In this document: positions 4,153 through 26,674 of the stretch, in pieces
Numbering within the stretch: position 1 is the stretch's first letter
Layout of the letters: every line of letters starts with the position of its first letter
DNA from: Candidatus Scatovivens sp.
Lineage (GTDB): Bacteria; Bacillota; Clostridia; TANB77; CAG-508
Direction of reading: 5' to 3'
Assembly (NCBI GenBank): GCA_045646345.1
Contig: JAZRKN010000014.1
Location: forward strand, 1 to 32,000
DNA length: 32,000 bases
Position numbers and translations under genes: made by a program
Notes under the pieces: model-generated
Database searches by the model: none
What the model saw: only the letters and a program-made list of their open reading frames with translations
Told to the model about the DNA's origin: nothing

Positions 4153-4181
4153 CCGATTATGTAAAATAGCACTTAAAGGTA

Positions 4182-4210
4182 TTGATATAACAACACTTTT
4201 GTGTTATAAT
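4182..4210 (+). promoter_or_regulatory. Sigma-A promoter of the divergent small ORF
   Basis: TTGATA (4182-4187), 17 nt, TATAAT (4205-4210), preceded by TGt. It stands back to back with the minus-strand promoter, 30 bp apart. Confidence 0.65.
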
Positions 4211-4259
4211 TTTTTGGATACTTATTGTTTTTTTATACCTACGATTGGAGGAGAATGTG

Positions 4260-4499
4260 ATGAGCAGAACAAGAAGTTTATTACGGTTACTTGTTCTAAG
4301 AGTTTGGGTCTCAGAGGACTCATGGGCAGAACTCGAAAATTATTTTTGCATGAGAAAAGAGAATATTATAAAACGATTAGCTGAAATGCTAAGTGATGAT
4401 AATGACAGTTCTCGCAAAATTAATGTATTCTGCAAACAAGTAGAAAAAAATGAGAAAATAAGAAATTTAAATGCTCAACGGTTGGAAAGACCACATTAG
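4260..4499 (+). CDS. Hypothetical small protein (79 aa)
   Basis: GGAGGAG RBS (4247-4253) lies 6 nt before the ATG at 4260. The TTG at 4245 in the ORF track overlaps the RBS, so it is unlikely to be the start. The unit is bracketed by a consensus promoter and a strong terminator. The N-terminus SRTRSLLRLLVLRVWV is Arg-rich and amphipathic. No recognisable family, and an RNA function cannot be excluded. Confidence 0.55.
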   Translation: MSRTRSLLRLLVLRVWVSEDSWAELENYFCMRKENIIKRLAEMLSDDNDSSRKINVFCKQVEKNEKIRNLNAQRLERPH

Positions 4500-4525
4500 A
4501 AAGCGCTTTCAGCGCTTTCTTTTTT
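4499..4525 (+). terminator. Rho-independent terminator of the small ORF
   Basis: GAAAGCGC-TTTCA-GCGCTTTC followed by TTTTTT. The stem begins inside the stop codon. Confidence 0.8.
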
Positions 4526-4593
4526 GTTTATTTTAAATAAAAAAAGTCACAAAAAAATCACTATTTTTTAGTGTGTTTTTTTGCTGATTTTCC

Positions 4594-4622
4594 TTGATTT
4601 TTTGAGTGTTTTTTTATATAAT
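4594..4622 (+). promoter_or_regulatory. Putative sigma-A promoter of gyrA
   Basis: TTGATT (4594-4599), 17 nt, TATAAT (4617-4622). AAGAGGAG RBS precedes the ATG at 4659. Confidence 0.55.
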
Positions 4623-4658
4623 GCAAGTGGAAAATAATAAAGGAAAAGAGGAGAATAA

Positions 4659-7094: not shown

Positions 7095-7108
7095 TTTTAA
7101 TATATTAA

Positions 7109-7140
7109 GGAGACAAACTTAAATGTTTGTCTTCTTTTTT
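7109..7140 (+). terminator. Rho-independent terminator of gyrA
   Basis: GGAGACAAAC-TTAAAT-GTTTGTCTTC forms a 10-bp stem including one G-U pair, followed by TTTTTT. Confidence 0.75.
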
Positions 7141-7183
7141 ATTTAAAAAAAATATATTTAATGATATACTAAAAAAGCAACAT

Positions 7184-7219
7184 ATTAATCCACAATTTGT
7201 TAAACAATTGTGGATTAAT
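7184..7219. promoter_or_regulatory. 36-bp near-perfect palindrome upstream of the ykgJ-like gene (candidate operator or leader hairpin)
   Basis: ATTAATCCACAATT-TGTTAAAC-AATTGTGGATTAAT has perfect 14-bp arms. Each arm contains TAATCCACA, one mismatch from the DnaA-box consensus TTATCCACA. Confidence 0.5.
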
Positions 7220-7253
7220 AACAGTTAATTTTTAATAAAAATGGGGAAGACAT

Positions 7254-7868
7254 ATGGATATTTTAACATTAAAATCTAAAGTAAAATTAGGGTGTAATTT
7301 ATGTGATAAATGTTGTATTTATAGGGGAGATATTAGATTACTTCCGATTAATGTTTGGAGAATAAGTAAATATTTAAATATATCGGTAGAAGAATTTTTG
7401 AAAAAGTATACAGATAGACCAGAGGGAAGTTTATTAGAATTAGTATTAAAAACTACAGGTGATTTAAGACAATGTATTTTATATGATGAAACAGGAAAAA
7501 AATGTGGTATTCATAAAGTAAAACCGCTTCAATGTGTAATGTTTCCTTTGGTGCCAGAAAATTTAAAAAGAGATTATTTTGTTGATTCAGGACAATGTAG
7601 GTTAGAGGACGCAAAAGAAATTACAGTAAATGAATGGGTTAATGGAAATAATAAAATATATAGTAAGAATAAAAAAATATGTATGGAATGGATTCAATTT
7701 ATAGAATGGGCTCAAACGAAAATAAATGGATTTTCAGCAGATGAAATTGATGAGTTATATAAAATCCTTTTTGCTACATATAATTTGAAAAATTTCAACC
7801 TTGTAAAGCAAATGAGAAGGAATATGTGGAAGGTTGAAAAAATAATAAAGATAAAAACGAAGAAATAA
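7254..7868 (+). CDS. YkgJ-family Cys-cluster (putative Zn/Fe-chelating, UPF0153) protein
   Basis: 204 aa. N-terminal CNLCDKCC (CxxCxxCC) motif, plus later Cys residues in CILYDETGKKCGIHKVKPLQC. Confidence 0.75.
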   Translation: MDILTLKSKVKLGCNLCDKCCIYRGDIRLLPINVWRISKYLNISVEEFLKKYTDRPEGSLLELVLKTTGDLRQCILYDETGKKCGIHKVKPLQCVMFPLVPENLKRDYFVDSGQCRLEDAKEITVNEWVNGNNKIYSKNKKICMEWIQFIEWAQTKINGFSADEIDELYKILFATYNLKNFNLVKQMRRNMWKVEKIIKIKTKK

Positions 7869-7871
7869 AAA

Positions 7872-7903
7872 ACACACCTCTTTTTTTAAGAGGTGTGTTT
7901 TTT
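7872..7903. terminator. Bidirectional terminator between the ykgJ-like and dnaI-like genes
   Basis: ACACACCTCT / AGAGGTGTGT 10-bp stem, flanked by an A-run on one side and a T-run on the other. The T-run overlaps the stop of the minus-strand gene. Confidence 0.8.
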
Positions 7904-8924
7904 AAGCGTCTTTTTTAGCTTTTTTGAATCTCAAATCATCACCAAAGAATCTTAAGAAACGATAGTTTCCAGCTAAACGAGAGCCGATTCTTGTAGTATA
8001 TGTTTTAAATAATTCATCTACATTTAAGTTTGTAGATATTATAGTTTTTGTTATTTTGTGATTTTGATTTAAAAGTCTTGTGTTTATGATTGTAAATAAT
8101 TCTGTGATTTTGGAATCAGTTATTTTTTCTGTTCCTAAATCATCTATTATAAGTAAATCAACATTTAAAATATTTTCATATAAATCAAATCTTGCGTTTT
8201 CTCTTCCAAATTTTGCATCGTTTATTTCGTCAAACATTACAGGTGCAGTTTGATAAAGAACTGTTTTTCCAAGTTTTAACATTTCATTTGCGATACAGTT
8301 AGTTAAAAATGTTTTTCCAACACCTGTATTACCTGTAAAGATTAGATTTTTTTCTTCTGGATCATCAAAGTTTTCAATAAAATTTTTCACTTTTTCTCGA
8401 ATGATTTGCATATTTTCTTTTGGAGATAATTCAGATTTATAAAGTTCTTTATCAGCCTTATCAGAGAAGATTCTAATATTAAAGCTTGAAAAGTTTTCTC
8501 TTTCTAAATTTCCCATGTTAGATTTATTATAAGCAATATCAAATATTCTTTGTTTTAAGCAAGTACACATAGTTACTTTGCCATCTTTTTGAACATATCC
8601 AGTATCTTTACACAATTTGCATTCAAAATGTGGATTTAGATAATTGTTTTCTTTAGAAAGATTTTTTATAAAATCATTTTTTTCCTTTATTAAACTAGTA
8701 TTTTTCTTTTTTAAACTTGCAAGTAAAGATGCTTTTTCTTTCGAATCAGCTAAAAGAATAGCTTTTGAAGTTTGAAGAGAGTTTTGTGTTAATTCTTTAT
8801 CAATTTCTTGAAGTCTAGGATTAACTTGCATTAATTCTTTTTTTCTCTTTTCTGCGTCTAATATGGCTTGAGTTCTTTTATTATCATATTCTTTTAAAAC
8901 TTGCTTTAATAAAGAATTATCCAT
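7902..8924 (-). CDS. dnaI: DnaI/DnaC-like replicative helicase loader (AAA+ ATPase)
   Basis: 340 aa. N-terminal Cys4 element CKLCKDTGY...CTC, Walker A FTGNTGVGKTFL and Walker B LLIIDDLGTE. It lies directly downstream of a DnaD-domain gene. Confidence 0.8.
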   Translation of the reverse strand: MDNSLLKQVLKEYDNKRTQAILDAEKRKKELMQVNPRLQEIDKELTQNSLQTSKAILLADSKEKASLLASLKKKNTSLIKEKNDFIKNLSKENNYLNPHFECKLCKDTGYVQKDGKVTMCTCLKQRIFDIAYNKSNMGNLERENFSSFNIRIFSDKADKELYKSELSPKENMQIIREKVKNFIENFDDPEEKNLIFTGNTGVGKTFLTNCIANEMLKLGKTVLYQTAPVMFDEINDAKFGRENARFDLYENILNVDLLIIDDLGTEKITDSKITELFTIINTRLLNQNHKITKTIISTNLNVDELFKTYTTRIGSRLAGNYRFLRFFGDDLRFKKAKKDA

Positions 8925-8973
8925 TTAAATGTTTTCCTTGATTTAAATTTAGGTTTTTAATAGAGCCTATAAA

Positions 8974-9927
8974 CTAGTTATCATATAGAGAGTCTAGATT
9001 GTCAAAAGTACTTTGAGTGTATTCGTAAGCGACTCTTTCAATTTGCTTTGTTTTCTTTTCTTTGTCTTTCAATGATTTCAAATAAGTATTTACTTCATCT
9101 ACAGAATGTAAGTCTTTATTATGCCAATCTGTAAGAAGTGTATCTATATAATCAAAACGAACTTTATTATTTGATGAAGCTTTTTTTAGAGCTATTTCTA
9201 TAACATCCATGTTATAACCATAATTTTCAGTCCATTTTACAATATCTTCTTCTTCATAAGTTGTTAATTTTCTGTATAGGTTTAATTTTTTAGAAATCTC
9301 ATTATTAATACTTCCACGTTTTTCTTGTTTTTCAAAATATGTATCTAAATCATTAAATGTTTTTATATTATTTTTACTCCATGCATCTGCTGTTGCTTGA
9401 ACGTAATTTCTGTGTAAAGCTCTTTTATCATAAGCATAATTAAAAAGAGCAAGCATAACTTGTTCATCAAATCCATATTTATTAAACCAAAGATCAATAT
9501 CATTGTACCAAGATGGAGACATAACTCCTTGGAAGAATTGAGAATTAATATTTTCAATTGCTTTTGCACGATATTGGCTCTGAGAACTCTTAATAGCATC
9601 TTCAGGAGAAGATGTTACTTTTGGAGAGTATAATTTTGCTAATTCTATTTCTTGGATATCGGCTAGAGTATAGCCATCTGTTTTCTTAACTAAAATACCT
9701 TTGTCTTCCCAGTATTTAATTGCATCTTGCACTGTTGGGAAATCCAAGGCAAGCGTTTTTGATAAGTCATTTATTTTAATTTCTTTATTGTATTTAGACA
9801 AAAAAAGCATATAGAAATATACTTTGATAAAATTACCATTTGCTTCTGGTAAATATTCTGTAAAAAACATATCTGGTATCTCTGTACTAGAAAATAGAAG
9901 AGATTTCTCGTTTTGAGATAATTTCAT
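8974..9927 (-). CDS. DnaD-domain replication initiation / membrane attachment protein (B. subtilis DnaB/DnaD-like)
   Basis: 317 aa with repeated DnaD-like segments (WFNKYGFDEQVMLALFNYAY..., IDTLLTDWHNKDLHS). It forms an operon with the helicase-loader gene. Confidence 0.75.
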   Translation of the reverse strand: MKLSQNEKSLLFSSTEIPDMFFTEYLPEANGNFIKVYFYMLFLSKYNKEIKINDLSKTLALDFPTVQDAIKYWEDKGILVKKTDGYTLADIQEIELAKLYSPKVTSSPEDAIKSSQSQYRAKAIENINSQFFQGVMSPSWYNDIDLWFNKYGFDEQVMLALFNYAYDKRALHRNYVQATADAWSKNNIKTFNDLDTYFEKQEKRGSINNEISKKLNLYRKLTTYEEEDIVKWTENYGYNMDVIEIALKKASSNNKVRFDYIDTLLTDWHNKDLHSVDEVNTYLKSLKDKEKKTKQIERVAYEYTQSTFDNLDSLYDN

Positions 9928-12914: not shown

Positions 12915-15242
12915 ATGAATTTATTAGAAGGATTAAATGACAAGCAATATGAAGCAGTTGTAAACACAGAAGGTCCATGCTTAGTTATAGCTGGTGCAGG
13001 AAGTGGAAAAACAAAAGTATTAACACATAAAATTGCTTACTTAATGGGAGAAAAAGGGGTAAAACCTTGGGATATTTTAGCTATAACTTTTACAAATAAA
13101 GCAGCTAATGAAATGAAATCAAGAGTAGAAGGCTTAGTTGGTGATGTAGCTAAAGATATGTGGATTGGAACATTCCACTCAATATGTGTAAGAATATTAA
13201 GAAAACAAATAGATAGAATTGGTTTTGATACATCTTTTATAATATTTGATACATCAGACCAAAAAACATTAATAAAACAAATAATAAAAGGACAAAATTT
13301 AGATGATAAATTATTTTCTGACAGATCAGTTCTTTCTGAAATTAGTAATGCTAAAAACGAAATGCTAGAACCAGATGCCTATAGCGTAAAAGCAAGAGGT
13401 GATTTTAGAAAAGAAAAAATAGCAGAAATATATGAAATTTATCAAAGAAAATTAAAAGAAAATAATGCAATTGATTTTGATGATATAATCAACTTTACAA
13501 TAAAAATATTATTAGATAATCCAGATTTATTAGAATATTATGCAGGAAAATTTAAATATGTTTTAGTAGATGAGTACCAAGATACAAACAAAGCTCAATT
13601 TACTTTAGTAACATTACTTGCATCAAGATATGGAAATATAACAGTTGTTGGAGATAATGACCAAGGAATATATTCATTTAGAGGGGCAGATATTTCAAAT
13701 ATTTTAAATTTTGAAAAAGATTTTCCAGGAACAAGAATTATAAAATTAGAGCAAAATTATAGGTGTACACAAAGTATATTAAATGCAGCAAATGAAGTTA
13801 TAAAAAATAACGAAACAAAATACGAGAAAAAACTTTGGACTGAAAATGAAAGAGGAAAACTTCCAAAAGTATTTAGAGGAGATAATGAATATGATGAAGC
13901 AAACTTTATCGTAAGAAATATTAATACTCTAAAAATGGAAGAATATTATAAATATTCTGATTTTGCTGTTTTATATAGAATGAACTCTCAATCACGTGCA
14001 ATAGAAGATATTTTAAGAAGAGAAAATATACCATACAAAATTGTTGGTGGTTTAAAATTCTATGAAAGAAAAGAAATCAAAGATATTATTGCTTACTTGA
14101 GATTAATACAAAACCCATCTGATAATTTGAGTTTAACAAGAATTATAAATGAACCAAAAAGAGGGGTTGGAAAAACAAGTTTAGATAATATTGATAGTTT
14201 AGCTGCTGACTCTGGAATTTCAATGTATGAAATAATAAGAGATGCGGATAAATATGGTTTAAATAGAGTATTTGCCAATACAAGAGAATTTATTTCTGTA
14301 ATTGAAGAATTAAGAAGTAAAAAAGATGATATGAAAATATCTGATTTAATTAAAGAAACTTTAAATAAATCAGGATACACAAGAGCTTTAGAACTTGAGA
14401 ATACAGTAGAAGCTGAATCAAGAATTGAAAACTTAGACGAATTTTTAACTGTTGCAATCGAATTTGAAGAAGAATCAGCAGATAATTCTTTAAGTGAATT
14501 CTTAGAAGGAATTACATTAAGTTCTGATTTAGATGGAATGGAAGATTCAGAAGAATCAGTAACATTAATGACTTTACATAGTGCTAAAGGACTTGAATTC
14601 CCAGTTGTATTTTTAGTAGGAATGGAAGAAGGAATTTTCCCAGGATATAAATCAATTGGAGAACCTCAAGAGCTTGAAGAAGAAAGAAGACTTTGCTATG
14701 TTGGAATAACAAGAGCAAAAGAAAATTTATTCTTAACATGTGCTCGTCAAAGAACAATTTTTGGTTCTACAAGTTGCAACAGTGTATCTAGATTTGTTAA
14801 AGAAATACCAGCAAATATGCTTGATGGTTATGAAGATATTGAAGAAAGAAACAATAGATATCCAGATAATGATAATGGCTATAATTGGGAATATGGACAA
14901 AAAAGATCATATAATGACTCTTATGGTGGAGGATATTATGGTGGCTCTTCAGTATCTACTTATAGAGATATAGCAGCTGCATCAAAAGGAAAATCAACTA
15001 CTTTCCAATTTAGAAGTGCAGATAGTTTCTTAAATAGTTTAAATACAAATAAAAATAAAAACGATGATTTAGATTTATCATCTTTCAAAGCAGGAGTAAG
15101 AGTTTACCACAAAAAATTTGGTGAAGGAACAATTAATTCTGTTGAAACAGAAGGTGAAGATTTAAAAGTAGATATTAGCTTTGATAAAGCTGGACATAAA
15201 CGACTAATGGCTAAATTTGCAGGACTAGAAATTATAGAGTAA
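12915..15242 (+). CDS. pcrA: ATP-dependent DNA helicase PcrA (UvrD family, SF1)
   Basis: 775 aa. Motifs are AGAGSGKT (Walker A), VDEYQDTN, TLHSAKGLEFPVVFL and RLCYVGITRA. A Gly/Tyr-rich linker precedes a C-terminal Tudor-like tail (VYHKKFGEGTI...). Confidence 0.95.
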   Translation: MNLLEGLNDKQYEAVVNTEGPCLVIAGAGSGKTKVLTHKIAYLMGEKGVKPWDILAITFTNKAANEMKSRVEGLVGDVAKDMWIGTFHSICVRILRKQIDRIGFDTSFIIFDTSDQKTLIKQIIKGQNLDDKLFSDRSVLSEISNAKNEMLEPDAYSVKARGDFRKEKIAEIYEIYQRKLKENNAIDFDDIINFTIKILLDNPDLLEYYAGKFKYVLVDEYQDTNKAQFTLVTLLASRYGNITVVGDNDQGIYSFRGADISNILNFEKDFPGTRIIKLEQNYRCTQSILNAANEVIKNNETKYEKKLWTENERGKLPKVFRGDNEYDEANFIVRNINTLKMEEYYKYSDFAVLYRMNSQSRAIEDILRRENIPYKIVGGLKFYERKEIKDIIAYLRLIQNPSDNLSLTRIINEPKRGVGKTSLDNIDSLAADSGISMYEIIRDADKYGLNRVFANTREFISVIEELRSKKDDMKISDLIKETLNKSGYTRALELENTVEAESRIENLDEFLTVAIEFEEESADNSLSEFLEGITLSSDLDGMEDSEESVTLMTLHSAKGLEFPVVFLVGMEEGIFPGYKSIGEPQELEEERRLCYVGITRAKENLFLTCARQRTIFGSTSCNSVSRFVKEIPANMLDGYEDIEERNNRYPDNDNGYNWEYGQKRSYNDSYGGGYYGGSSVSTYRDIAAASKGKSTTFQFRSADSFLNSLNTNKNKNDDLDLSSFKAGVRVYHKKFGEGTINSVETEGEDLKVDISFDKAGHKRLMAKFAGLEIIE

Positions 15243-18646: not shown

Positions 18647-19205
18647 TTAGTCATCAGCTGGTTCTTGTCCGCCTTTTTTCTTGTCATCCCATTCAGCTTT
18701 ATGTTCTTCCCACCATGCAGGGAAATTAGGATCTTTAGGTGAAAGAGTTGGAGTGATTCCAACGTTTTGAAAACCAGAATTTCCATATATGTTAAACGGA
18801 TATATAGTATCCGAACCTACACCTAAATGGAAAAATTGCATTAATATTCCGTTTATTTTCTGTCCAGATATTTCTTGTGTAATTAGTCATTACATTATCA
18901 ACATTGTCTTTTTCTATACTAATTGTATTACTATGTTCGTGAGTTGTGGCTAATTGGCCATATAAATATCTAATGTGTTTTAAGTTTTCTAATAATTTTT
19001 TCTTATCAAATAAAATTGGATTAGAATCTTCTTGATAACCAAATTTTTTTTGTTGTAAAATGCTTTTTATATATTCTGTAGTTGATTCTGTTGCTAAACA
19101 CCTATTAAATATTGCTTGTACATTTCCTTCTGTTAGTTCTATAGGTTGAAAACTATCATTATTATGCTGTTCGTTATATTTTTTTAATTTATCTTTTAAC
19201 CCCAT
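18647..19205 (-). pseudogene. Hypothetical gene split by a +1 frameshift (or affected by a sequencing error or recoding)
   Basis: The ATG at 19205 has a GGAGA RBS and opens a 137-codon frame ending at 18792. A second frame, 18647-18841, overlaps it by 50 nt, has no RBS of its own and continues to a terminator. The junction contains the homopolymers GAAAATAAAC and CAATTTTTCC. Confidence 0.55.
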
Positions 19206-19257
19206 AATAAAATCTCCTTTATAAAAACTAATTACAGTGTAACACAAATTATGTAAA

Positions 19258-19322
19258 TAATCAAGAAAAATGTTACATAAATGATAATAAAGTGTAATTG
19301 TAATCAAGAAAAACTTAACATA
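19258..19322. repeat. Two 22-bp direct repeats, 43 bp apart, in a divergent promoter region
   Basis: TAATCAAGAAAAATGTTACATA (19258-19279) and TAATCAAGAAAAACTTAACATA (19301-19322). They match at 19 of 22 positions, and the first 13 nt are identical. Confidence 0.7.
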
Positions 19323-19365
19323 CAATGTATATGTAAAAATAGATACAAAGGAAGATGTTTGTATT

Positions 19366-21240
19366 ATGGAACAAGGAAATCCAAATAAAGTAAGTGCTAT
19401 TGTTGATGAAATAGTTAGAAATAATGCTATGTTTAAGTTAAAGTCTCCTATAGAAAGAGATAAAGAAAAATATTCTATGGAGAAAAGCATTAACACAGCG
19501 TTATCAGAACTAAATGAAACAGGAAAAGAACTAGTATTAGAAGAATTAGCTGTGAACCCTGATGAAAAGTTTAAAGGGTTTATTGATAATGCCGGAAACA
19601 TAGATATATCAGGAATATTAAAATTTACTTCAGCCGTTGTAAAAGTAAAAATAGAAGAAGCACAAAGAGAAGGTATAAATTTAAGAAAAGATGGACCAGG
19701 AATTGTAAATGGTACAAATTTTAAACCAGAAGACGTAATTGCAATGGCTGCAATTGGTGAAATGATTTCAAATTATGAAAATTTAACTGATAAGCAAAAA
19801 GCCAGTTTATTTAATGAGAAAATTTATATGGCAATGTCAAATGAAGATAGAAGAAGATTAAACGATAAAGTATATGAAGAAGCTAGTAAAAAAGATTTAT
19901 CGGATAAAGAAAGAAGAAAAGTAGAAAGACTAAGAAGAGAAACATTAATAAATGAAGCATATTTAGATATTATAGAAAAGAATCCAAATCTTTCATTTGA
20001 ACAAATTTCAGCGGAAATTGAAAGAAGACATCCAGAGCTTAGCGAAAAAGAAATAAGAGAGCAATGTAAAAAATATCATAGAGATGATAGAACGTCACAA
20101 GAAAATAGTAATGCTGCGAAGAAATCAACTTATGAAAACACAACGAGCATAACAGCTATTACCGTTAAACATCAATATAATAATTTAGTAAAAAAAGGTT
20201 TGGTCAGAGAAGCGGAAGAGTATATATTAAGTTATAAAGATGAGATACCTGAAATAGATAGATATTATCATAAGATGAAAGAAAGTGGAGCCATTACTAT
20301 TGAGCAAGATACAGGTAATGATTTAGAAACACAAACAGTACAACTTGAAGCAAGAGAAGATAATGTTAGTAATGAAGATAAAAATAATGCATTGGCAGAA
20401 TTTAAAAATGAAGCTCAAACGATTAACAATGCACTGGAAGAGAAAAAAATAGATATACAAAATGAAATTATAGCTCAACTAACAACAATATATGAAAAAG
20501 AAGGGCAGACTATAGAAGATAAAAATATAGCTATATCAATATATGCGGACTTTTTAAAAGAAATTGACGAGGAGGTAATTGCTGATTTTAAAAATAAAAG
20601 TGAAGATGAATTAATTGATTTTATGAAAAAATATTTTGAAGATTTTAAAGATAATATGTCTTCAAATAGCTTTGAAATATTACAAGGATTAGCTCAAAAT
20701 ACTTTCGGAGGAAACTTATATAAATTGTTAACTAACAAACAAATGTTGGAAGAAGTTCTTTTGCCAACATTAAACTCCGAAATGGAAAGATTAGGATCTA
20801 GTCAAGAACTAGAAGTAGTCACAGCACAAGAAAAATCAAAAAATGAAGAAGATGTAACTCCGATAACTGACACAGATGTCGAACAAGGAGTAAGACAAGG
20901 AACACTTAAACAAGAAGATTTAATTGTAGATACAGCAAGTGTTCGTACAGCTCAAAATGAGGAAGAAGGAAGAGTAAATGTTGAAATTCTTAACACAGAA
21001 CAAGCTGAGCAAGGAGTAAATTCAAAACCATTTAAAAATGTAAGTGCTTTTATGGGAATCATAGGAGATGAAAAAGATAATGTGGCAGAAAGTGATTTAG
21101 AAGAAACTCTTGCTGAGTTAGAAACAGCAGCACAAATGATAGAACAAGACCTACAAGTAACTCAAGGAAATATAGGCAATCCACAAACAAATTTAAATCA
21201 AGAACAAACAATTAAAGAAGATGAAGGTATAGAGCAATAA
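19366..21240 (+). CDS. Hypothetical 624-aa highly acidic, Glu/Lys/Asn-rich protein
   Basis: Long uninterrupted ORF with an AAGGAAG RBS-like element upstream and a terminator downstream. No signal peptide or TM segment and no recognisable domain. It contains coiled-coil-like and low-complexity stretches. Confidence 0.7.
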   Translation: MEQGNPNKVSAIVDEIVRNNAMFKLKSPIERDKEKYSMEKSINTALSELNETGKELVLEELAVNPDEKFKGFIDNAGNIDISGILKFTSAVVKVKIEEAQREGINLRKDGPGIVNGTNFKPEDVIAMAAIGEMISNYENLTDKQKASLFNEKIYMAMSNEDRRRLNDKVYEEASKKDLSDKERRKVERLRRETLINEAYLDIIEKNPNLSFEQISAEIERRHPELSEKEIREQCKKYHRDDRTSQENSNAAKKSTYENTTSITAITVKHQYNNLVKKGLVREAEEYILSYKDEIPEIDRYYHKMKESGAITIEQDTGNDLETQTVQLEAREDNVSNEDKNNALAEFKNEAQTINNALEEKKIDIQNEIIAQLTTIYEKEGQTIEDKNIAISIYADFLKEIDEEVIADFKNKSEDELIDFMKKYFEDFKDNMSSNSFEILQGLAQNTFGGNLYKLLTNKQMLEEVLLPTLNSEMERLGSSQELEVVTAQEKSKNEEDVTPITDTDVEQGVRQGTLKQEDLIVDTASVRTAQNEEEGRVNVEILNTEQAEQGVNSKPFKNVSAFMGIIGDEKDNVAESDLEETLAELETAAQMIEQDLQVTQGNIGNPQTNLNQEQTIKEDEGIEQ

Positions 21241-21247
21241 TAAAAAC

Positions 21248-21278
21248 AAAAAATCCAACTTTTATGTTGGATTTTTTT
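21248..21278. terminator. Bidirectional terminator between convergent genes
   Basis: ATCCAAC-TTTTAT-GTTGGAT stem flanked by an A-run and a T-run. The stop codon of the minus-strand gene lies in the loop. Confidence 0.75.
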
Positions 21279-21774
21279 CTTTATTAAATATTTTAAATAT
21301 AAAGTTCTTAATTGATGTAAACATCTTCTTATACCAAGGCAAATTATTATAATCTACTGGTAAAGCAGATGGATCTGATTTAACTTCTACAGTTGTATTT
21401 AAATTTATTTCTGTAGTAGTTGCTGTTTTATTATTAAAGATATTCTCTGGATTGTATTTTTCACGTAATTCTTTTTGTTTTTGTTTTTCGTTTTCTGCTA
21501 AAATAGCTTTTATTTGAGATTTCTCTTCTTCTGTTTCACACCAATAGTTTAATGAAAGTAGAGCTATAAGTGCAGCAGTTTTTTTAGAAACATTTTGGTC
21601 TTCTAAAGGAAGATTACTATCTAAATGTTTTTCATAAGTATCAAGAGCATAAGTATTAAAGATAGTCATAAGTTTTTTTGGAATTTTACTTACTAAGCTA
21701 TCATCTGTAAATGACAGAATTTCTAATAATTCTGCATAAGCATATGCTTGATCGGGCTTAATTTGAATTGCCAT
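21262..21774 (-). CDS. Hypothetical 170-aa protein
   Basis: This is the second gene of a two-gene minus-strand operon. The N-terminal helical domain reads ELLEILSFTDDSLVSKIPKKLMTIF...ALIALLSLNYWCETEEEK. It resembles uncharacterised clostridial proteins I recall only vaguely, so I give no family name. Confidence 0.7.
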   Translation of the reverse strand: MAIQIKPDQAYAYAELLEILSFTDDSLVSKIPKKLMTIFNTYALDTYEKHLDSNLPLEDQNVSKKTAALIALLSLNYWCETEEEKSQIKAILAENEKQKQKELREKYNPENIFNNKTATTTEINLNTTVEVKSDPSALPVDYNNLPWYKKMFTSIKNFIFKIFNKEKNPT

Positions 21775-21813
21775 TTATCTACTTGTCCTTTCATTAAAAT
21801 CTTTTGTTTGGTA

Positions 21814-22539
21814 TTACATTGTTCTATCTTCTGGTTCTGTTTTGGTATCTGTTGTTCTTGGAGTTGTCTTTTTTGGTTGTGGTATATAAATTTTTTGTTG
21901 AGTATTTTCAACAGTTAAATTTTCTGTCTTCAAAGGTGATTGGGCTGCTTCTTGAGTTCCTTTTTTTGGTAAATCGAATGAATCATCTAATTCGATTTCT
22001 GCTGAATCAGGAACATCCAAAATTTCTTCGCTATTTGTAAGTTCTTGAGGTTTTCTTGAATTATCGATAAGTGTTCTTGGTTGCGATTGTTGATCATTTT
22101 TTAATCTTTCTACAGCAATTTGTGCTGGAGTTTTATGATGTATGATAGCTTGTAATTGCTCTGGAGTAACAGTTTGATCAAGTTGTTGTTTTGTAGATTG
22201 ACTAATTGTTTGAACTTTAAGTCTATTTGGTGATGATTTAGCATTAATTTTGTCTGCTCTTTTCTTTTGATGATTTTCAAAAGCTGTTACAAGTCTTGCT
22301 CTTAAAGATTTTTTATCTGTAGCTTCCAGCGGATCTTTTGACGTAGTTTGATATCCTTTTGTATTTGTTGTATTATCTCCAAGTAATAATTGTCCTGGTT
22401 TGATTAATTTCATTTTTTGTAGTAATTCAGAGACTTTTTTCATTGCATTAGAAAAAGGGTTAGATGTATCTATGTCATGTATATAGCCAGTTTTGTCTTG
22501 ATTTAATTCTTTGTTTGGATCATTTTCTAGATTATCCAT
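21814..22539 (-). CDS. Hypothetical 241-aa Gln/Thr/Pro/Lys-rich, probably disordered protein
   Basis: The ATG at 22539 follows AAAGGGGG. The ORF-track start at 22605 would overlap the predicted promoter. Composition is low-complexity with no TM segment and no recognisable domain. Confidence 0.6.
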   Translation of the reverse strand: MDNLENDPNKELNQDKTGYIHDIDTSNPFSNAMKKVSELLQKMKLIKPGQLLLGDNTTNTKGYQTTSKDPLEATDKKSLRARLVTAFENHQKKRADKINAKSSPNRLKVQTISQSTKQQLDQTVTPEQLQAIIHHKTPAQIAVERLKNDQQSQPRTLIDNSRKPQELTNSEEILDVPDSAEIELDDSFDLPKKGTQEAAQSPLKTENLTVENTQQKIYIPQPKKTTPRTTDTKTEPEDRTM

Positions 22540-22576
22540 AAATCTAATACCCCCTTTTACTCCAATATATACTATT

Positions 22577-22605
22577 ATTTTATACATAACCGATCTAAAG
22601 TGCAA
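22577..22605 (-). promoter_or_regulatory. Sigma-A promoter of the 241-aa/170-aa operon
   Basis: The minus strand reads TTGCAC, 17 nt, TAAAAT. Confidence 0.5.
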
Positions 22606-22692
22606 TAAAATTACAAAAATTTAACCAAAATGACATATTTGGAGGTAATAATTAAAAAATAAAAAAGAAGATAAAAAAATAAAGTCATGGAT

Positions 22693-22722
22693 TTGACTTT
22701 AGAGTAAATAACATATTATAAT
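22693..22722 (+). promoter_or_regulatory. Sigma-A promoter of candidate small RNA A
   Basis: TTGACT (22693-22698), 18 nt, TATAAT (22717-22722). Confidence 0.6.
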
Positions 22723-22727
22723 AAAGA

Positions 22728-22840
22728 ATAAGGACACCAAAATTCAATTAGAATTTTGATGTGTTCCTTTGGAAAAATGAAAAGTCTTCCATTTAATCTG
22801 AGGGGTTGAGTCAGATTAGTAAAAGTGGAAGACTTTTTTT
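22728..22840 (+). ncRNA. Candidate convergent small RNA A (about 110 nt)
   Basis: Its own consensus promoter is followed by a 5' box GAATAAGGAC. A hairpin at 22730-22769 pairs AAGGACACCAAAATTC with GAATTTTGATGTGTTCCTT. A terminator follows at 22784-22840. It carries no credible ORF and ends 10 nt from the stop codon of the opposing ORF. Confidence 0.55.
22784..22840. terminator. Bidirectional terminator shared by small RNA A and the cassette-1 ORF
   Basis: The outer stem is GTCTTCCA / TGGAAGAC and the inner stem TAATCTGA / TCAGATTA. T7 follows on the plus strand and TTTTCATTTTT on the minus strand. Confidence 0.75.
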
Positions 22841-22849
22841 ATGTAAAAA

Positions 22850-23152
22850 CTAGTCGTTAGTTATTTTTTCAAGCGTAACATAAGAGTCTAAAATTTTGTG
22901 ATCATATCGATTGAATTTAGCTAAATAATTAAAAAGTTCTTGATTGATTTTTCTCATAATGTTTTTTAATTCATGTCTTTCAATTGCAGAAATTGACTTA
23001 TTATATTGTTCGACAATGCATTTGATAATTTCTTGAATGACAGTATAGCTAATATCTTTGTCTTGCTTTTCTTTTTTGCTTTCACTTATTGTTTCAATGT
23101 GTTTTTTTATAATAATATGAATTAAATATACATCAGTATCATTTTTCTTCAT
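22850..23152 (-). CDS. Hypothetical 100-aa helical protein, cassette 1
   Basis: The ATG at 23152 lies 7 nt after an AAAGGAGGAA RBS. The ORF-track start at 23191 falls inside the leader hairpin. The protein is hydrophilic with no TM segment. It is paralogous to the 99-aa ORF at 23492-23791, sharing IHxIIxxH[IL]xT[IL]xE, DKxxxY, KCxV and FxYL. Confidence 0.7.
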   Translation of the reverse strand: MKKNDTDVYLIHIIIKKHIETISESKKEKQDKDISYTVIQEIIKCIVEQYNKSISAIERHELKNIMRKINQELFNYLAKFNRYDHKILDSYVTLEKITND

Positions 23153-23161
23153 AAGTATTCC

Positions 23162-23185
23162 TCCTTTAAAACCTAATTTAAAGGA
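23162..23185 (-). promoter_or_regulatory. SD-sequestering hairpin in the cassette-1 leader
   Basis: The mRNA sense reads TCCTTTAAA-TTAGGT-TTTAAAGGA, a perfect 9-bp stem. The 3' arm is the 5' half of the Shine-Dalgarno sequence AAAGGAGGAA. Confidence 0.55.
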
Positions 23186-23260
23186 ACACATTTTGAAACT
23201 CTAATCTGAATCAATATCCTTATTCAATTTTCAAATGTTTGACAAATATCAAACACCAAC

Positions 23261-23289
23261 ATTATAGCACAACGGTTGACATAAGTCAA
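23261..23289 (-). promoter_or_regulatory. Sigma-A promoter of the cassette-1 mRNA
   Basis: The minus strand reads TTGACT, 17 nt, TATAAT. The -35 box lies inside the palindrome GTTGACATAAGTCAA. Confidence 0.7.
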
Positions 23290-23314
23290 AAGGTAAAAAA
23301 ATAAAGCCAATAAA

Positions 23315-23343
23315 TTGACTTTTTAATAGGGCAAAATTATAAT
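23315..23343 (+). promoter_or_regulatory. Sigma-A promoter of candidate small RNA B
   Basis: TTGACT (23315-23320), 17 nt, TATAAT (23338-23343). Confidence 0.65.
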
Positions 23344-23349
23344 ATGAAT

Positions 23350-23458
23350 AAGGACATCAAAATTCATTACGAATTTTGATGTATATCCTAAATATGGAAA
23401 ATCTTCCAAGTATCATCGGAAACATGGGTGGTCTCAGATGTTTGGAAGATTTTTTTTA
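23350..23458 (+). ncRNA. Candidate convergent small RNA B (about 110 nt)
   Basis: The 5' box TGAATAAGGACAT is followed by a hairpin pairing ACATCAAAATTC with GAATTTTGATGT. The terminator pairs ATCTTCCAA with TTGGAAGAT and ends in T8. It has the same layout as RNA A, with base changes that preserve the hairpin. Confidence 0.55.
23401..23458. terminator. Terminator of small RNA B, possibly also used by the cassette-2 ORF
   Basis: 9-bp outer stem plus an inner CATC/GATG pairing, then T8 on the plus strand. The minus-strand U-tract (TTTCCATATTT) is weak. Confidence 0.65.
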
Positions 23459-23491
23459 TTTATTGCAATATCAATGATTGATAGTTATTTT

Positions 23492-23791
23492 CTAGATTGA
23501 AGTAAGTAATTCGTATAATTCGGTTACATTTGAATCCCAAGGATTATCAATTAAGTAAACAAAAAAAGATTCTTTAACTCGATATATAGTAAAGTGAATT
23601 TCTAAGTTGATTGGTGTTAAAATAAATTTGTTTTTATTATCCGAATAGTGTCTCATTAATTTGTAGACAGCACATTTTAGCATGTCATACTCCAATAGTT
23701 TGTCATCATCTGATAGCTCAACTTCCTTAAGTGTTCTTAAATGTGTATTTATAATTTTGTGTATATTTTTAATTTCTTTAGTTTTTTCCAT
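23492..23791 (-). CDS. Hypothetical 99-aa helical protein, cassette 2 (paralogue of 22850-23152)
   Basis: The ATG at 23791 lies 4 nt after a TAGGAGGAA RBS. It has its own promoter and leader, is hydrophilic and belongs to no recognisable family. Confidence 0.7.
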   Translation of the reverse strand: MEKTKEIKNIHKIINTHLRTLKEVELSDDDKLLEYDMLKCAVYKLMRHYSDNKNKFILTPINLEIHFTIYRVKESFFVYLIDNPWDSNVTELYELLTSI

Positions 23792-23906
23792 AAAATTCCT
23801 CCTAAAATAAAATTAAAAAACATACTTATGAGTACACACCAAAAACTCTTATCTGAACCCATGTCCTTATTCAATTTTTAAATGTTTGGAAACCAAACAT
23901 GCAATT

Positions 23907-23935
23907 AGTATAGCACAAAAGTTGACATAAGTCAA
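23907..23935 (-). promoter_or_regulatory. Sigma-A promoter of the cassette-2 mRNA
   Basis: The minus strand reads TTGACT, 17 nt, TATACT. The -35 box sits in the same palindrome as in cassette 1. Confidence 0.65.
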
Positions 23936-23982
23936 AAAACAAGGCGATTAAATCTACAAAAATAAAATTTTACATAAAACAT

Positions 23983-24011
23983 TTGAAATATATAGAAAAA
24001 TACTGTATAAT
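23983..24011 (+). promoter_or_regulatory. Sigma-A promoter of the ABC-F gene
   Basis: TTGAAA (23983-23988), 17 nt, TATAAT (24006-24011), with TG directly upstream of the -10 (extended -10). Confidence 0.6.
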
Positions 24012-24044
24012 AGAATGGTTAAAAATATTAGGAGGTTTTTTATA

Positions 24045-25634
24045 ATGCTTTTATCAAATGGAGTAACTTTAAGATTTGGAAAAAGAGTACTTTTCGAAGA
24101 TGTTACTATAAAATTTACAAAAGGAAATTGTTATGGTTTGATTGGTGCTAATGGTGCCGGAAAATCTACTTTTTTAAAAATCTTATCAGGAGAAATAGAA
24201 CCTAATAAAGGTGAAGTTATTTTAGACAAAGGTGAAAGACTATCTGTATTAAAACAAGATCACTATGCTTTTGAAGGATATACAGTAATAGATACTGTTA
24301 TGATGGGAAATAGTGAACTTTATAAAATAATGAAAGAAAAAGATGCAATTTACTCAAAACCAGATTTCTCAGAAGAAGATGGAATGAAAGCTGCAAAACT
24401 TGAAGAAAGATTTGCTGAATTGGATGGATGGAACGCTGAATCAGATGCAGCTAAAATGTTAAATGATTTAGGTATTGATGTAGATTTACATTACAAATAT
24501 ATGAGCGAAATTGAAGCTAAAGATAAAGTTAAAGTTCTTTTAGCACAAGCGTTATTTGGAAATCCAGATGTTTTATTATTAGACGAGCCTACAAACGACT
24601 TAGATATTAAAACAATAAATTGGTTACAAGATTTCTTAATGGATTTCGAAAATACTGTAATTGTCGTATCTCACGATAGATATTTCTTAAATAAAGTATG
24701 TACTCATATTGCTGATGTTGACTTTGGAAAAATTAAAGTATATCCAGGAAACTATGACTTCTGGTATGAATCAAGCCAACTTGCATTAAAACAAATGAGA
24801 GATGCAAATAAAAAGAAAGAAGAAAGAATTAAAGAGTTACAAGAATTCATTGCTAGATTTAGTGCTAACGCTTCAAAATCAAAACAAGCTACATCTAGAA
24901 AGAAATCTTTAGAGAAAATTGAACTTGAAGAGATTAAACCTTCAAACAGAAAATATCCTTATATAGATTTTAAACCAGATAGAGAACAAGGAAAAGAAAT
25001 TTTAGAAGTTAAAAATATTTCTAAAACAATAAATGGAGAAAAAATATTAGATAATGTTAGTTTCACTGTAAAAAGAGAAGATAAAATAGCTCTTTTATCA
25101 GATAATGAAATTGCAAAAACTGTTTTATTCCAAATCATTGCTGGAGAAATGGAACCAGATGAAGGTGAATTAGTTTGGGGAACAACAATTACTAAAGATT
25201 ATTTCCCAAAAGATAATAACTATATGTTTGAACAAGATTTAAGTATAACAGATTGGCTACGTCAATATTCAAAAGATCCAGATGAAACATATGTTAGAAG
25301 TTTCTTAGGAAGAATGCTTTTCTCTGGAGAAGAAGCTTTGAAAAAGGTTGCAGTTTTATCAGGAGGAGAGAAAGTAAGATGTGTTCTTTCAAAATTAATG
25401 CTTTCAGGAGCAAACTTCTTAATTTTTGATGAACCAACAAACCACTTAGATATGGAATCAATTACAGCGTTAAATGATGGTATGACAAAATATAAAGGAA
25501 TAATGATGTTTACATCTCATGACCACCAATTAACACAAACTGTAGCAAACAAAATTATAGATATAACAGATAATAATGTAGTTGTAAGAGAATGTACTTA
25601 TGACGAATACTTAGAAGAACAAGAAAATAAATAG
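24045..25634 (+). CDS. ABC-F family ATPase (YbiT/YkpA-like, ribosome-associated type)
   Basis: It has two ABC domains and no TM segment. NBD1 shows GANGAGKST, the Q-loop and LLLDEPTNDLD. A Lys/Glu-rich linker follows. NBD2 shows LSGGEKVR and LIFDEPTNHLD. The ATG at 24045 lies 9 nt after AGGAGG, whereas the ORF-track ATG at 24015 would precede the predicted transcription start. Confidence 0.9.
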   Translation: MLLSNGVTLRFGKRVLFEDVTIKFTKGNCYGLIGANGAGKSTFLKILSGEIEPNKGEVILDKGERLSVLKQDHYAFEGYTVIDTVMMGNSELYKIMKEKDAIYSKPDFSEEDGMKAAKLEERFAELDGWNAESDAAKMLNDLGIDVDLHYKYMSEIEAKDKVKVLLAQALFGNPDVLLLDEPTNDLDIKTINWLQDFLMDFENTVIVVSHDRYFLNKVCTHIADVDFGKIKVYPGNYDFWYESSQLALKQMRDANKKKEERIKELQEFIARFSANASKSKQATSRKKSLEKIELEEIKPSNRKYPYIDFKPDREQGKEILEVKNISKTINGEKILDNVSFTVKREDKIALLSDNEIAKTVLFQIIAGEMEPDEGELVWGTTITKDYFPKDNNYMFEQDLSITDWLRQYSKDPDETYVRSFLGRMLFSGEEALKKVAVLSGGEKVRCVLSKLMLSGANFLIFDEPTNHLDMESITALNDGMTKYKGIMMFTSHDHQLTQTVANKIIDITDNNVVVRECTYDEYLEEQENK

Positions 25635-25798: not shown

Positions 25799-26179
25799 AT
25801 GATGAACAAAACAGAATTCTTAAAAGTAGCAATTAAAACATCAAAAAGGGACTATGGTAAAACCGTGTTAAACAAAGTCTACAACAAACGTAATAAAAAA
25901 CAGTTTGTAAGAGATTTTGTTATAAGTCTCTGGGGATTTTCAACAATATCTAGAGAAAAATCATATGGAGAAGAGTATGATAACGATGCAATTTTAATTG
26001 AAGAAGCAGGTGGATACTATGAACATGTGATTGTTGAAAAAGTGGCAGCAGAAAATAAGCAAAGGGTAAGAGAAGGGTATTTTGTAAAAATGTATACTGA
26101 CGAAGTAACTTACACCTGTAAGGGCTATGAAGTAAAGGAGGAAGTATTAGTAGTTGTTCCTAAAGTGCCTTTTTTCTAA
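25799..26179 (+). CDS. Hypothetical 126-aa protein
   Basis: It has an AAGAGG RBS and its own promoter and terminator. No recognisable family. Confidence 0.65.
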   Translation: MMNKTEFLKVAIKTSKRDYGKTVLNKVYNKRNKKQFVRDFVISLWGFSTISREKSYGEEYDNDAILIEEAGGYYEHVIVEKVAAENKQRVREGYFVKMYTDEVTYTCKGYEVKEEVLVVVPKVPFF

Positions 26180-26284: not shown

Positions 26285-26313
26285 TTGATAAGTAGAAGAA
26301 AATATGATATAAT
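26285..26313 (+). promoter_or_regulatory. Sigma-A promoter of the GC-rich membrane-protein gene
   Basis: TTGATA (26285-26290), 17 nt, TATAAT (26308-26313), preceded by TGa. The TTG 'start' in the ORF track at 26285 is this -35 box. Confidence 0.6.
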
Positions 26314-26347
26314 TTATGTATACTTTTTAAAAGGAGTTGACCTTTTT

Positions 26348-26674
26348 ATGTACATGAACCATATCGTAAAGCGGGCAATTAGCAATATCTGGAAAAATAC
26401 CAAGGTAAACCTGAAGAAAGGCTTTTTCGGTGCTCTCGAGAGCACGAAGTATACCTTGGGTCTGGCGTATGTCGGATACTTCGTTGGAGCAATCCCGGTG
26501 ATGATGCTGGTTAACCTGTTTGGTCTTTTGACCACGGGCCAGGTATATCCGGTTGATCTGCACAAGGAAGTCATTCTGCCGGCACTGTTTTTCATCATTC
26601 TGGCAATTACCCTAGTTGGGTGGTTCTACAAAGAGCTCGATATCGCAGTGGCTGAACTGGCTGAAGAGAGCTAA
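26348..26674 (+). CDS. Hypothetical 108-aa membrane protein with two predicted TM helices, compositionally foreign
   Basis: The ATG at 26348 lies 11 nt after AAGGAG. Hydrophobic segments are LGLAYVGYFVGAIPVMMLVNLFGLL and ILPALFFIILAITLVGWF. G+C counts 30/60 in 26461-26520, and CTG/CCG/GGC codons are frequent, unlike neighbouring genes. Confidence 0.65.
   Translation: MYMNHIVKRAISNIWKNTKVNLKKGFFGALESTKYTLGLAYVGYFVGAIPVMMLVNLFGLLTTGQVYPVDLHKEVILPALFFIILAITLVGWFYKELDIAVAELAEES

Follow-up and report, generated by a model that had tools for sequence, protein, structure and literature searches.

Tandem orphan-gene cassettes from an uncultured gut member of the Clostridia, with leaders complementary to their own 3′ regions and a predicted leader-like antisense RNA

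The stretch of DNA analysed here, 32,000 nucleotides of Candidatus Scatovivens sp. (contig JAZRKN010000014.1; 'the window' below), contains two units, at 22672-23291 (unit 1) and 23292-23937 (unit 2), which lie head-to-tail on the minus strand and each of which encodes a protein of about 100 amino acids behind a promoter and a structured leader. Comparison of these cassettes with their relatives leads us to propose, at a probability of about 0.5, that they are controlled post-transcriptionally through pairing between the leader of the mRNA and the region 3′ of the open reading frame (ORF), with an antisense RNA competing for that pairing. Three boxes in the leader, A, B and C, are all complementary to the mRNA-sense region 3′ of the ORF of the same cassette. 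In the DNA, the ORF is flanked by inverted repeats, and leader and antisense RNA are colinear over boxes A, B and C. Owing to the inversion, the sequence of the convergent RNA is that of the leader rather than its complement, and it is the mRNA-sense 3′ region that forms the complement. An earlier note on this DNA had alluded to convergent promoters, which our analysis bears out, but had overlooked both the identity of the predicted convergent RNA with the leader and the complementarity of the leader to the 3′ region; its suggestion that the cassette may be RNA-controlled draws strong support from the sequence comparisons.

Loci were gathered from GTDB genomes and JGI metagenomes with a 20-mer from the conserved 3′ block, and distant members were added through protein look-ups; about 18 sequence classes of cassette are represented in related gut metagenome-assembled genomes (MAGs). 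Two further loci, L012 and L029, were discarded as chance or chimeric motif matches without a cassette. Every genuine locus has the same elements in the same order on the mRNA strand, around proteins that are only 20-40% identical between classes. The promoter (TTGACTTATGTnAAC...TATAAT), whose distance from box A is constant over the 17 classes, is followed by a hairpin at the mRNA 5′ end, P1, whose stem sequence varies between cassettes while the hairpin is kept. Box A (UUGAAAAUUGAAUAAGGA), with a core, GAAUAAGGA, that is nearly invariant across all classes, box B, which is variable between cassettes, and box C (UUUUGAUGUG, then a C/U-rich tract complementary to the Shine–Dalgarno (SD) sequence) precede the ribosome-binding site (RBS) and the ORF of about 100 codons. 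Downstream come a hairpin, T1, the 3′ block (GGAGCACAUCAAAAUUC-loop-GAAUUUUGRUGUCCUUAUUC), a promoter on the other strand directed back into the unit and a second hairpin, T2, followed by U7.

Box B carries the argument. It differs in every class, yet it always has an exact match of 8-21 nt to the T1 of its own cassette. In permutation tests over 17 classes (20000 permutations; summed duplex energies in kcal/mol), box B paired with the mRNA sense of T1 at −271, compared with −161 ± 12.5 for permuted pairs (0/20000), whereas the control, the antisense sense of T1, gave −168 compared with −157 ± 8.7 (2037/20000), which was not significant; direct pairing of the antisense RNA with the leader through T1 was rejected on this test. 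The extension of box C with its mRNA-sense complement, anti-C, gave −234 compared with −190 ± 11.3 (2/20000). In 15 of the 17 classes the complement of box B occupies the 5′ half of T1, arm and loop. Anti-C, a purine-rich SD mimic, and anti-A flank a hairpin, HP, after which comes T2, a strong terminator in the mRNA sense, and cofolding of leader and 3′ region gained 15-27 kcal/mol over the separate folds. Where leader and antisense RNA differ by a transition, the leader has U or G and the antisense RNA C or A in 74 cases compared with 23 (p ~2e-7, from non-independent samples; 147 compared with 48 in a second count), an excess of potential G.U wobbles that pairing of the leader with the mRNA-sense strand would be expected to leave. 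By the permutation tests, the 5′ and 3′ untranslated regions (UTRs) show conserved complementarity, the membership of the 3′ region in the mRNA being predicted.

In unit 2 (minus strand), box A (UUGAAUAAGGACAU, with an SD-like AAGGA; 23861-23874) is complementary to anti-A at 23345-23357, and the cassette-specific box B (ACAUGGGUUCAGAUAAGAG, 23846-23864) to positions 23422-23440, which form the mRNA-sense 5′ half and loop of the bidirectional terminator hairpin T1 (23401-23450, both strands). Box C with its extension (UUUUUGGUGUGUACUCAUAAGUAUG, 23821-23845) is colinear with the antisense-RNA sequence at 23370-23396 and hence complementary to the mRNA-sense 3′ region, where anti-C and HP (23354-23382) together span 23354-23396 and score as terminator-like on the minus strand. 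In unit 1, also on the minus strand, box A (UUGAAUAAGGAUAU, 23214-23227) pairs with anti-A at 22726-22738 if three U.G wobbles are included, and box B (UUGAUUCAGAUUAG, 23201-23214) is complementary at 13 of 14 positions to 22806-22819 (CUAAUCUGACUCAA), again the mRNA-sense 5′ arm and loop of a bidirectional T1 (22784-22833); the anti-C of this unit, AAAGGAACACAUCAAAA, lies with HP (22734-22762) at 22734-22770. A motif search placed the conserved box noted earlier, TTGAATAAGGA(T/C)AT, at 23227-23214 and 23874-23861 on the minus strand, corresponding to UUGAAUAAGGA(U/C)AU in the leader RNA of each unit. With two mismatches allowed, TTGAATAAGGAYAT is not by itself rare by chance; the 15-mer TTGACTTATGTCAAC is (0/100 shuffles).

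A second switch-like element follows box C. Folding in silico paired the SD with the C/U tract immediately after box C in 16 of 17 leaders, in a hairpin that we call P3, with an SD pairing probability of 0.79 compared with 0.58 for shuffled sequences. The stem sequences of P3 differ between classes and covary (UUCCUUUAAA/UUUAAAGGAGG, CUCUCAAAA/UUUUGAGAG and CUCUUAUAAAAA/UUUUUAUAAGGAG). In unit 1 the UUCCUUU tract at the end of box C (AGUUUCAAAAUGUGUUCCUUU, 23180-23200) pairs with the SD, AAGGAGG (23160-23166), which is thereby sequestered in P3 with a pairing probability of 0.77; in unit 2 the SD, AGGAGG, lies at 23798-23803. The identity between leader and antisense RNA extends through the anti-SD tract, so anti-C is an SD mimic that should be able to displace the real SD; GGAGCAC, AAAGGAACAC and UUGAGAGUAC are examples of it in the mRNA sense.

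These elements can be joined in a single model. A near-consensus sigma-A promoter would give an mRNA with a 5′ hairpin, in which the anti-SD tract would lock the RBS in P3. Box B of the leader would capture the nascent 5′ arm of T1 and so favour read-through, and the 3′ UTR made by read-through would pair with boxes A and C, drawing the anti-SD tract out of P3 and exposing the RBS, such that the long mRNA isoform would be the translated one. The antisense RNA, of about 110 nt and perfectly complementary to the 3′ element, would compete with the leader for that element and keep the cassette off, the duplex probably being a substrate for RNase III, while the cassette-specific box B sequences would insulate the tandem paralogs from one another. 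The direction of the effect could be activation, as set out here, or instead repression or decay of the kind described below for icaR.

The antisense strand provides the second part of the model. Antisense promoters lie on the plus strand of each unit, as the earlier note had hinted, at 22693-22722 (TTGACT-18-TATAAT) in unit 1 and at 23315-23343 (TTGACT-17-TATAAT) in unit 2, both matching the consensus at 11 of 12 positions. The predicted antisense RNA 1, of about 113 nt (22728-22840), has box A at 22726-22736, then a stem-loop, SL1, and T1 with U7; antisense RNA 2, of about 108 nt (23350-23457), starts in box A (GAAUAAGGACA, 23346-23356), continues into SL1 and ends at T1 with U8. The RNAalifold consensus of 15 antisense RNAs contains SL1 and T1, with eight compensatory pairs. 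Summed over the classes, T1 is more stable in the antisense sense (ΔG −462, compared with −394 in the mRNA sense), with 59 G.U pairs in the antisense sense and 19 in the mRNA sense, and we read it as the terminator of the antisense RNA; the T1 of unit 2 is likewise more stable, and also richer in G.U pairs, in the antisense sense. T2 shows −209 in the mRNA sense and −149 in the antisense sense, with 37 and 17 G.U pairs, and is read as terminating mRNA-sense transcripts, and HP has a slight mRNA-sense preference (−262 and −252, with 17 and 7 G.U pairs), its recurrent GRUG variant giving a U.G pair in the mRNA sense only. HP with its CCUUAUUC tail scored as terminator-like on the minus strand. 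T2 lies at 22673-22700 in unit 1 (AAAGUCA-loop-UGACUUU, then AUUUUUUU) and at 23295-23322 in unit 2 (AAAGUC-loop-GGCUUU, then AUUUUUUU), both on the minus strand; that of unit 2 has G.U pairs only in the mRNA sense and overlaps the −35 element of the antisense promoter. Automated counts of U-tracts around T1 carried no information, since the A runs and U runs at its flanks pair together.

The leader was present in every homologue examined, and a convergent promoter matching the consensus at 10 or more of 12 positions in 13 of the 17 classes, its −10 element ending 2-3 nt before GAATAAGG. The antisense promoter is weak in the remaining four classes; in three of these T1 favours the mRNA sense, in the fourth it is tied, and the box B:T1 matches of the four are among the strongest. 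Strong pairing in spite of a weak antisense promoter suggests that the complementarity between 5′ and 3′ regions is the core feature and the antisense RNA a frequent addition.

Several observations weigh against this reading. Complementarity to the mRNA-sense 3′ region is formally the same as identity to the antisense RNA, and pairing is told from mimicry only by the wobble asymmetry and the sense/antisense control; the asymmetry may be inflated by base composition in the loosely aligned stretch of box B and HP, and within box B:T1 itself the transitions are even (6:6). The classes are phylogenetically related, so that the statistics do not come from independent samples. Transcript starts and 3′ ends, like the antisense RNA and the read-through of T1, are predictions, and T1 has a U-tract in the mRNA sense too, such that most mRNAs may end there and thus be without anti-C and anti-A. 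P3 is weak in unit 2 (pairing probability 0.53, no better than shuffled sequences), MAFFT and RNAalifold on whole leaders gave only a 5-bp helix, and the covariation of P1 and P3 rests on per-sequence folds, indels having defeated the whole-leader alignment. Finally, box A is nearly invariant and does not covary, which hints at some additional constraint, for example from binding of the 30S subunit, from a protein or from sequence near the promoter.

That last point leads to a different explanation, in which leader and antisense RNA bind a common trans-acting factor and the antisense RNA is a decoy, or sponge, that titrates the factor off the mRNA; the 30S subunit (through AAGGA), a CsrA-like GGA-binding protein and the cassette's own protein are candidates. 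The near invariance of the box A core fits such a factor, as does the colinearity of the two RNAs over all three boxes, and box A can occupy the loop of a small hairpin in both, as UGAAU-AAGGA...-AUUCA in the leader (15 of 16) and as GAAU...AUUC in the antisense RNA. A common factor, however, leaves unexplained why box B is class-specific and yet always matches its own T1, why the match lies in the mRNA-sense 5′ arm and loop, and why leader and antisense RNA differ in the U/G versus C/A direction. Nor does the protein recommend itself as the factor; the isoelectric points of the family (4.7-9.5, median 6.3) are not those of a consistently basic RNA binder, and Foldseek found no RNA-binding fold in PDB or BFVD. 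We consider the decoy quite unlikely. In the hairpin itself, UGAAU of box A (23214-23227 and 23861-23874) can pair with AUUCA of box B and place AAGGA in a loop of about 10 nt, and GAAU...AUUC can form likewise in the antisense RNA. The arrangement recalls GGA-in-loop sites of the CsrA type, or else a stand-by site for the 30S subunit, and may be the reason that box A is invariant.

Among known systems, the layout comes strikingly close to that of the par loci of Enterococcus and Staphylococcus (Fst; RNA I and RNA II), whose features are listed in PMC7472228. Common to par and the cassette are convergent promoters, a bidirectional intrinsic terminator shared by the two RNAs, with complementary loops able to kiss, and two hairpins in the mRNA, one that protects its 5′ end and one that sequesters the SD intramolecularly; repeat boxes lie in the 5′ regions of both RNAs and have diverged between co-resident paralogs for specificity. 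The cassette differs in the orientation of its repeats: DRa and DRb of par are direct in the DNA and RNA II is complementary to the RBS region, which it blocks, whereas in the cassette the repeats are inverted and GAAUAAGGAYA, box B and box C occur alike in both RNAs. It differs also in its product, par encoding a membrane peptide of about 30 amino acids (Fst/Ldr type, PXXXG) and the cassette a soluble helical bundle of 100 amino acids, with no such peptide and no Pfam match. Direct repeats and a membrane peptide define par, and both fail in the cassette.

The likeness nevertheless brings forward a proposal about function, namely that the cassette is a type I toxin–antitoxin or addiction module of par/Fst layout, with the 100-amino-acid protein as a non-membrane toxin and the convergent RNA as its antitoxin. 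Such a function would be compatible with the RNA anatomy proposed above. The strong convergent promoters, the shared terminator with its complementary loops, the 5′ hairpin, the SD stem-loop (SD sequestration in mRNA structure, seen here in the 16 of 17 folded leaders, is also a trait of type I systems) and the repeats in both 5′ regions speak for it, as do the tandem paralogs with unit-specific interaction boxes, which recall co-resident par loci. However, because the repeats are inverted and the antisense RNA has the sequence of the mRNA 5′ region, it cannot mask the RBS as RNA II does, and four classes seem to be without a good antisense promoter. Type I toxins are small (usually <60 amino acids) hydrophobic or membrane peptides, unlike the hydrophilic ORFs of 99-100 amino acids found here, for which a soluble four-helix bundle is modelled with confidence. 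No toxin–antitoxin or defence model, those of PADLOC included, matches the protein, and the toxin–antitoxin, addiction or defence function put forward in the earlier note, for a protein that is soluble and lacks the hydrophobicity of type I toxins, is not supported. We regard it as somewhat unlikely, further evidence on both sides being given with the genomic setting.

Pairing between the two ends of one mRNA has been described elsewhere. In the icaR mRNA of Staphylococcus aureus, a 3′ UCCCCUG anti-SD sequence pairs with the SD and represses translation, probably with RNase III cleavage (PMC3868564). The cassette resembles icaR in its conserved 5′-3′ UTR complementarity within one predicted mRNA, but its 3′ element pairs with boxes A, B and C and the anti-SD tract, not with the SD, and should therefore expose the SD; moreover, a dedicated cis-antisense RNA is predicted to cover the 3′ element. 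In Bacillus subtilis hbs, a 14-bp pairing of 5′ and 3′ UTRs modulates cleavage by RNase Y (PMC5737220). Like hbs, the cassette has a short and presumably highly expressed gene, a structured 5′ UTR, a strong SD and a long-range pairing of about 14 bp, equal to that of box B with T1 in unit 1; hbs is not described as having an antisense RNA, a switch that sequesters the SD or pairing through several boxes. Pairing of that last kind, an SD mimic and an antisense RNA that mimics the leader are absent from icaR and hbs alike.

Among toxin–antitoxin loci, the full-length mRNAs of hok/sok (fbi-tac) and Helicobacter pylori aapA1/IsoA1 fold their 3′ end onto their 5′ end, which sets translatability, and an antisense RNA controls the active form; there, by contrast, the 5′-3′ pairing inactivates, the antisense RNA overlaps the 5′ region and the products are small membrane peptides. 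In bsrG/SR4 and txpA/RatA of B. subtilis, which encode hydrophobic peptide toxins, a convergent antisense RNA overlaps the 3′ end of the mRNA, an arrangement from which RNase III-dependent decay is expected and which may change the structure of a distant RBS; we know of no leader-like antisense sequence or leader-3′ UTR complementarity in these loci.

Control of the cassette thus looks like a new form, a variant that combines cis-antisense control with 5′-3′ UTR control. Few bacterial 5′-3′ UTR interactions are known (icaR and hbs were those found here) and they have been discovered gene by gene; the three boxes, with natural covariation over about 18 variants and an antisense RNA that mimics the leader, would offer a clean and directly testable model for long-range mRNA circularization, possible long-range antitermination and competition between antisense RNA and leader. 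The unit-specific 'code' of box B also shows how tandem paralogs could avoid cross-talk. The elaborate control and the fast turnover of an orphan family suggest a role in conflict or addiction. A reading that joins all the parts, in which box B antiterminates T1, the 3′ SD mimic opens the RBS, the antisense RNA is a leader mimic and the orphan bundle is a soluble toxin or conflict effector, is in our view unlikely; if true, it would make the cassette a new class of RNA-antitoxin module, distinct from types I and III, and if the protein is toxic the definition of RNA-antitoxin systems would need widening.

The two units align over about 680 columns, along which coding sequence of poor conservation is interrupted by long invariant blocks of non-coding DNA. 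Each has the architecture described earlier from the sequence alone, and each of the elements then listed was found: a consensus-like mRNA promoter, a hairpin at the predicted transcript 5′ end followed by the conserved box, a strong RBS, an ORF of about 100 codons and a terminator. The mRNA promoters, at 23261-23289 in unit 1 (TTGACT-17-TATAAT, 11/12 to consensus) and 23907-23935 in unit 2 (TTGACT-17-TATACT, 10/12), both on the minus strand and both with a TG-extended −10, were among the best promoter-like sites of the region in a promoter scan, and P1 was folded at the predicted +1 in both units (GUUUGAUAUUUGUCAAAC, 23237-23254; AUGUUUGGUUUCCAAACAU, 23882-23900; minus strand). The two matches singled out before, GTTGACATAAGTCAAAA (17/17) and TATAGCACAA (10/10), held in the repeat comparison, where both fall within one repeat family, D4. 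A palindrome over the −35 element, TTGAC-N4-GTCAA, was considered as an operator and rejected, since it is not kept elsewhere (GTCAA becomes GTTAA or GTAAA); it probably reflects nothing more than promoter context. Candidate small conserved ORFs, looked for by eye in both leader and antisense RNA, were likewise rejected, the frames from the AUG of box C varying in length and frame and lacking an RBS. Rfam gave no match at gathering thresholds over the whole window, and only chance-level matches at E≤10 over the cassette region.

With the units adjacent and their non-coding blocks 89-100% identical, the similarity might be functionless, a product of recent tandem duplication or of gene conversion between units. 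This is contradicted by the age of the paralogs, whose 22% identity shows the duplication to be old, and by conservation of the blocks in single-cassette genomes and across cassettes at synonymous distances (dS) of 0.4-1.0; in addition, the variable boxes covary within each cassette. We consider functionless similarity very improbable. Between orthologous cassettes at these distances the non-coding blocks are 82-94% identical, compared with 76-86% for coding nucleotides, and the architecture is kept around proteins of 20-40% identity, in agreement with the earlier view that selection has held the RNA and regulatory parts more tightly than the proteins.

ORF1 (100 amino acids, 22850-23152) and ORF2 (99 amino acids, 23492-23791), both on the minus strand, are related through profiles rather than pairwise. 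Alignment with hhalign gave a probability of 98.9% (E 1e-17, 94 columns) and the family alignments are colinear, whereas pairwise BLASTP returned E=5 in the wrong register and showed no relation; the comparisons indicate that the two are ancient paralogs, a relation that had been called clear at the outset. Of the motifs then said to be shared, IHxIIxxH[IL]xT[IL], DKxxxY and FxYL occupy homologous positions in the family alignment and KCxV does not. Both ORFs are to be regarded as real genes; the ratio of nonsynonymous distance (dN) to dS among orthologs is 0.11-0.32, with the exception of one very close pair (0.77 at dS 0.08), and ratios of 0.1-0.3 denote ordinary purifying selection, a further point against a toxin–antitoxin role. 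A full profile scan of 1.84 billion representatives collected 34 clusters, all of about 100 amino acids, compared with 8, 15 and 31 from word-indexed searches. As far as these searches reach, the family is small, orphan and confined to uncultured gut Clostridia.

The AlphaFold 2 model of ORF1 is a confident four-helix bundle (predicted local distance difference test score 91), and the proteins are hydrophilic (grand average of hydropathy −0.1 to −0.7; about −0.3 to −0.6 for the two ORFs). Neither ORF had a family match when the two and their neighbours were searched against Pfam, NCBIfam, PADLOC and PHROGs, an exact-protein look-up of both returned no record, and a sequence-profile search of PDB gave nothing below E 0.019, the designed helical repeats and weak uS15-like stretches at E≥0.02 being taken as helical-composition noise. 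Foldseek comparison of the model with PDB and BFVD returned generic helical bundles only (E≥0.1). Class IIa bacteriocin immunity proteins are also four-helix bundles of about 100 amino acids, but an identity of the EntA_Immun type was rejected, as there was no Pfam match and no such entry among the top Foldseek matches in PDB. The earlier statement that the proteins belong to no recognizable family is therefore borne out by profile, PDB and structure searches, which gave no characterized family.

The genomic setting bears on function. The gene order of an ABC-F gene, the cassette or cassettes and three orphan genes is kept in related MAGs, in which the ABC-F neighbour is 92-100% identical (dN 0.005 and dS ~0.27 to the closest genomes) and the cassette proteins at the same locus 20-80% identical (dN 0.1-0.2, dS 0.4-1.0). 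The cassettes thus sit in what these comparisons indicate to be a fast-evolving, hypervariable island (19366-22605 and 24015-25634), and such protein turnover at a conserved locus is a point in favour of a toxin–antitoxin function. So is the occurrence of one identical cassette (protein P0036; loci L020 and L021, 1240-2000) in two unrelated contexts, between an rve-family transposase gene and mannose-6-phosphate isomerase in one and between a cation-efflux gene and tyrosyl-tRNA synthetase in the other. Identity of the two copies ends about 40 nt outside both promoters, from which the cassette appears to move as a unit, in line with the self-contained module envisaged earlier. A lineage in which the ORF is frameshifted after 29 codons while the promoter, boxes A, B and C, T1, HP and T2 are intact (L022, ~13000-13710, and L031, of the same sequence) can be counted on the same side; it keeps its own covarying box B (TCAATACTCATG compared with CTTGAGTATTGA), and is a pseudogene that has kept its RNA elements or else a site of recoding. 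The absence of the cassette from plasmid and phage collections counts against a toxin–antitoxin function. The plasmid collection gave no match to the cassette and viral sequences none to the 3′-block 20-mer, and ten viral matches to the 17-mer leader motif were dismissed as unrelated coding sequences without a cassette; an origin from phage or plasmid was rejected on the absence from both collections.

The collected loci also bear on whether the inverted repeats are recombination sites of an invertible DNA segment that flips the ORF between two outward promoters. GAATAAGGAYA boxes flank the ORF in inverted orientation and an inward-facing promoter lies on each side, which speaks for such a segment, but all of about 25 distinct contigs show a single orientation and no recombinase adjoins the cassette in the window, which excludes such a switch for practical purposes. 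The repeats are, moreover, split into three boxes with unequal spacing on the two sides, and the G.U asymmetries indicate selection at the RNA level. We hold inversion to be extremely improbable.

An ABC-F promoter (TTGAAA-17-TATAAT, 11/12; 23983-24011, plus strand) and the promoter of unit 2 point away from each other at a distance of less than 50 nt; the two may share upstream elements or interfere with one another. The three orphan neighbours, of 242 (21814-22542, minus strand), 170 (21262-21774, minus strand) and 624 amino acids (Glu-rich; 19366-21240, plus strand), have no family match and are ~32-90% identical where they are matched in relatives (L001-L019). The last overlaps an ORF at 18792-19601 (minus strand) by 236 nt on opposite strands; a counterpart gene is called as 161-182 amino acids in relatives, so the listed start of one or both of the overlapping ORFs is probably too far upstream. 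Some relatives have a gene of 433-469 amino acids without a Pfam match (L003, 1531-2940; L004, 6197-7498; L005; L006), inserted on the opposite strand between the second cassette and the homologue of the 242-amino-acid gene, at a point just past T2. Orphan ORFs of 126 (25799-26179) and 129 amino acids (26285-26674) separate ABC-F from a PHO4 phosphate transporter gene, the former being present in L007 and L008 and absent from L001 and L004, an indel polymorphism.

The window as a whole is chromosomal and has an origin-proximal look, with gyrB, gyrA, DnaD/DnaB_2, a DnaI-like protein and PcrA. The origin-type gene set spans 463-9927, with gyrB at 463-2391, gyrA at 4659-7094, a DnaI/IstB-like ATPase at 7902-8924 (minus strand) and DnaB_2/DnaD at 8974-9927 (minus strand), and the 2.2-kb gap between gyrB and gyrA holds an orphan ORF of 243 amino acids on the opposite strand (3318-4049) and two long intergenic gaps.

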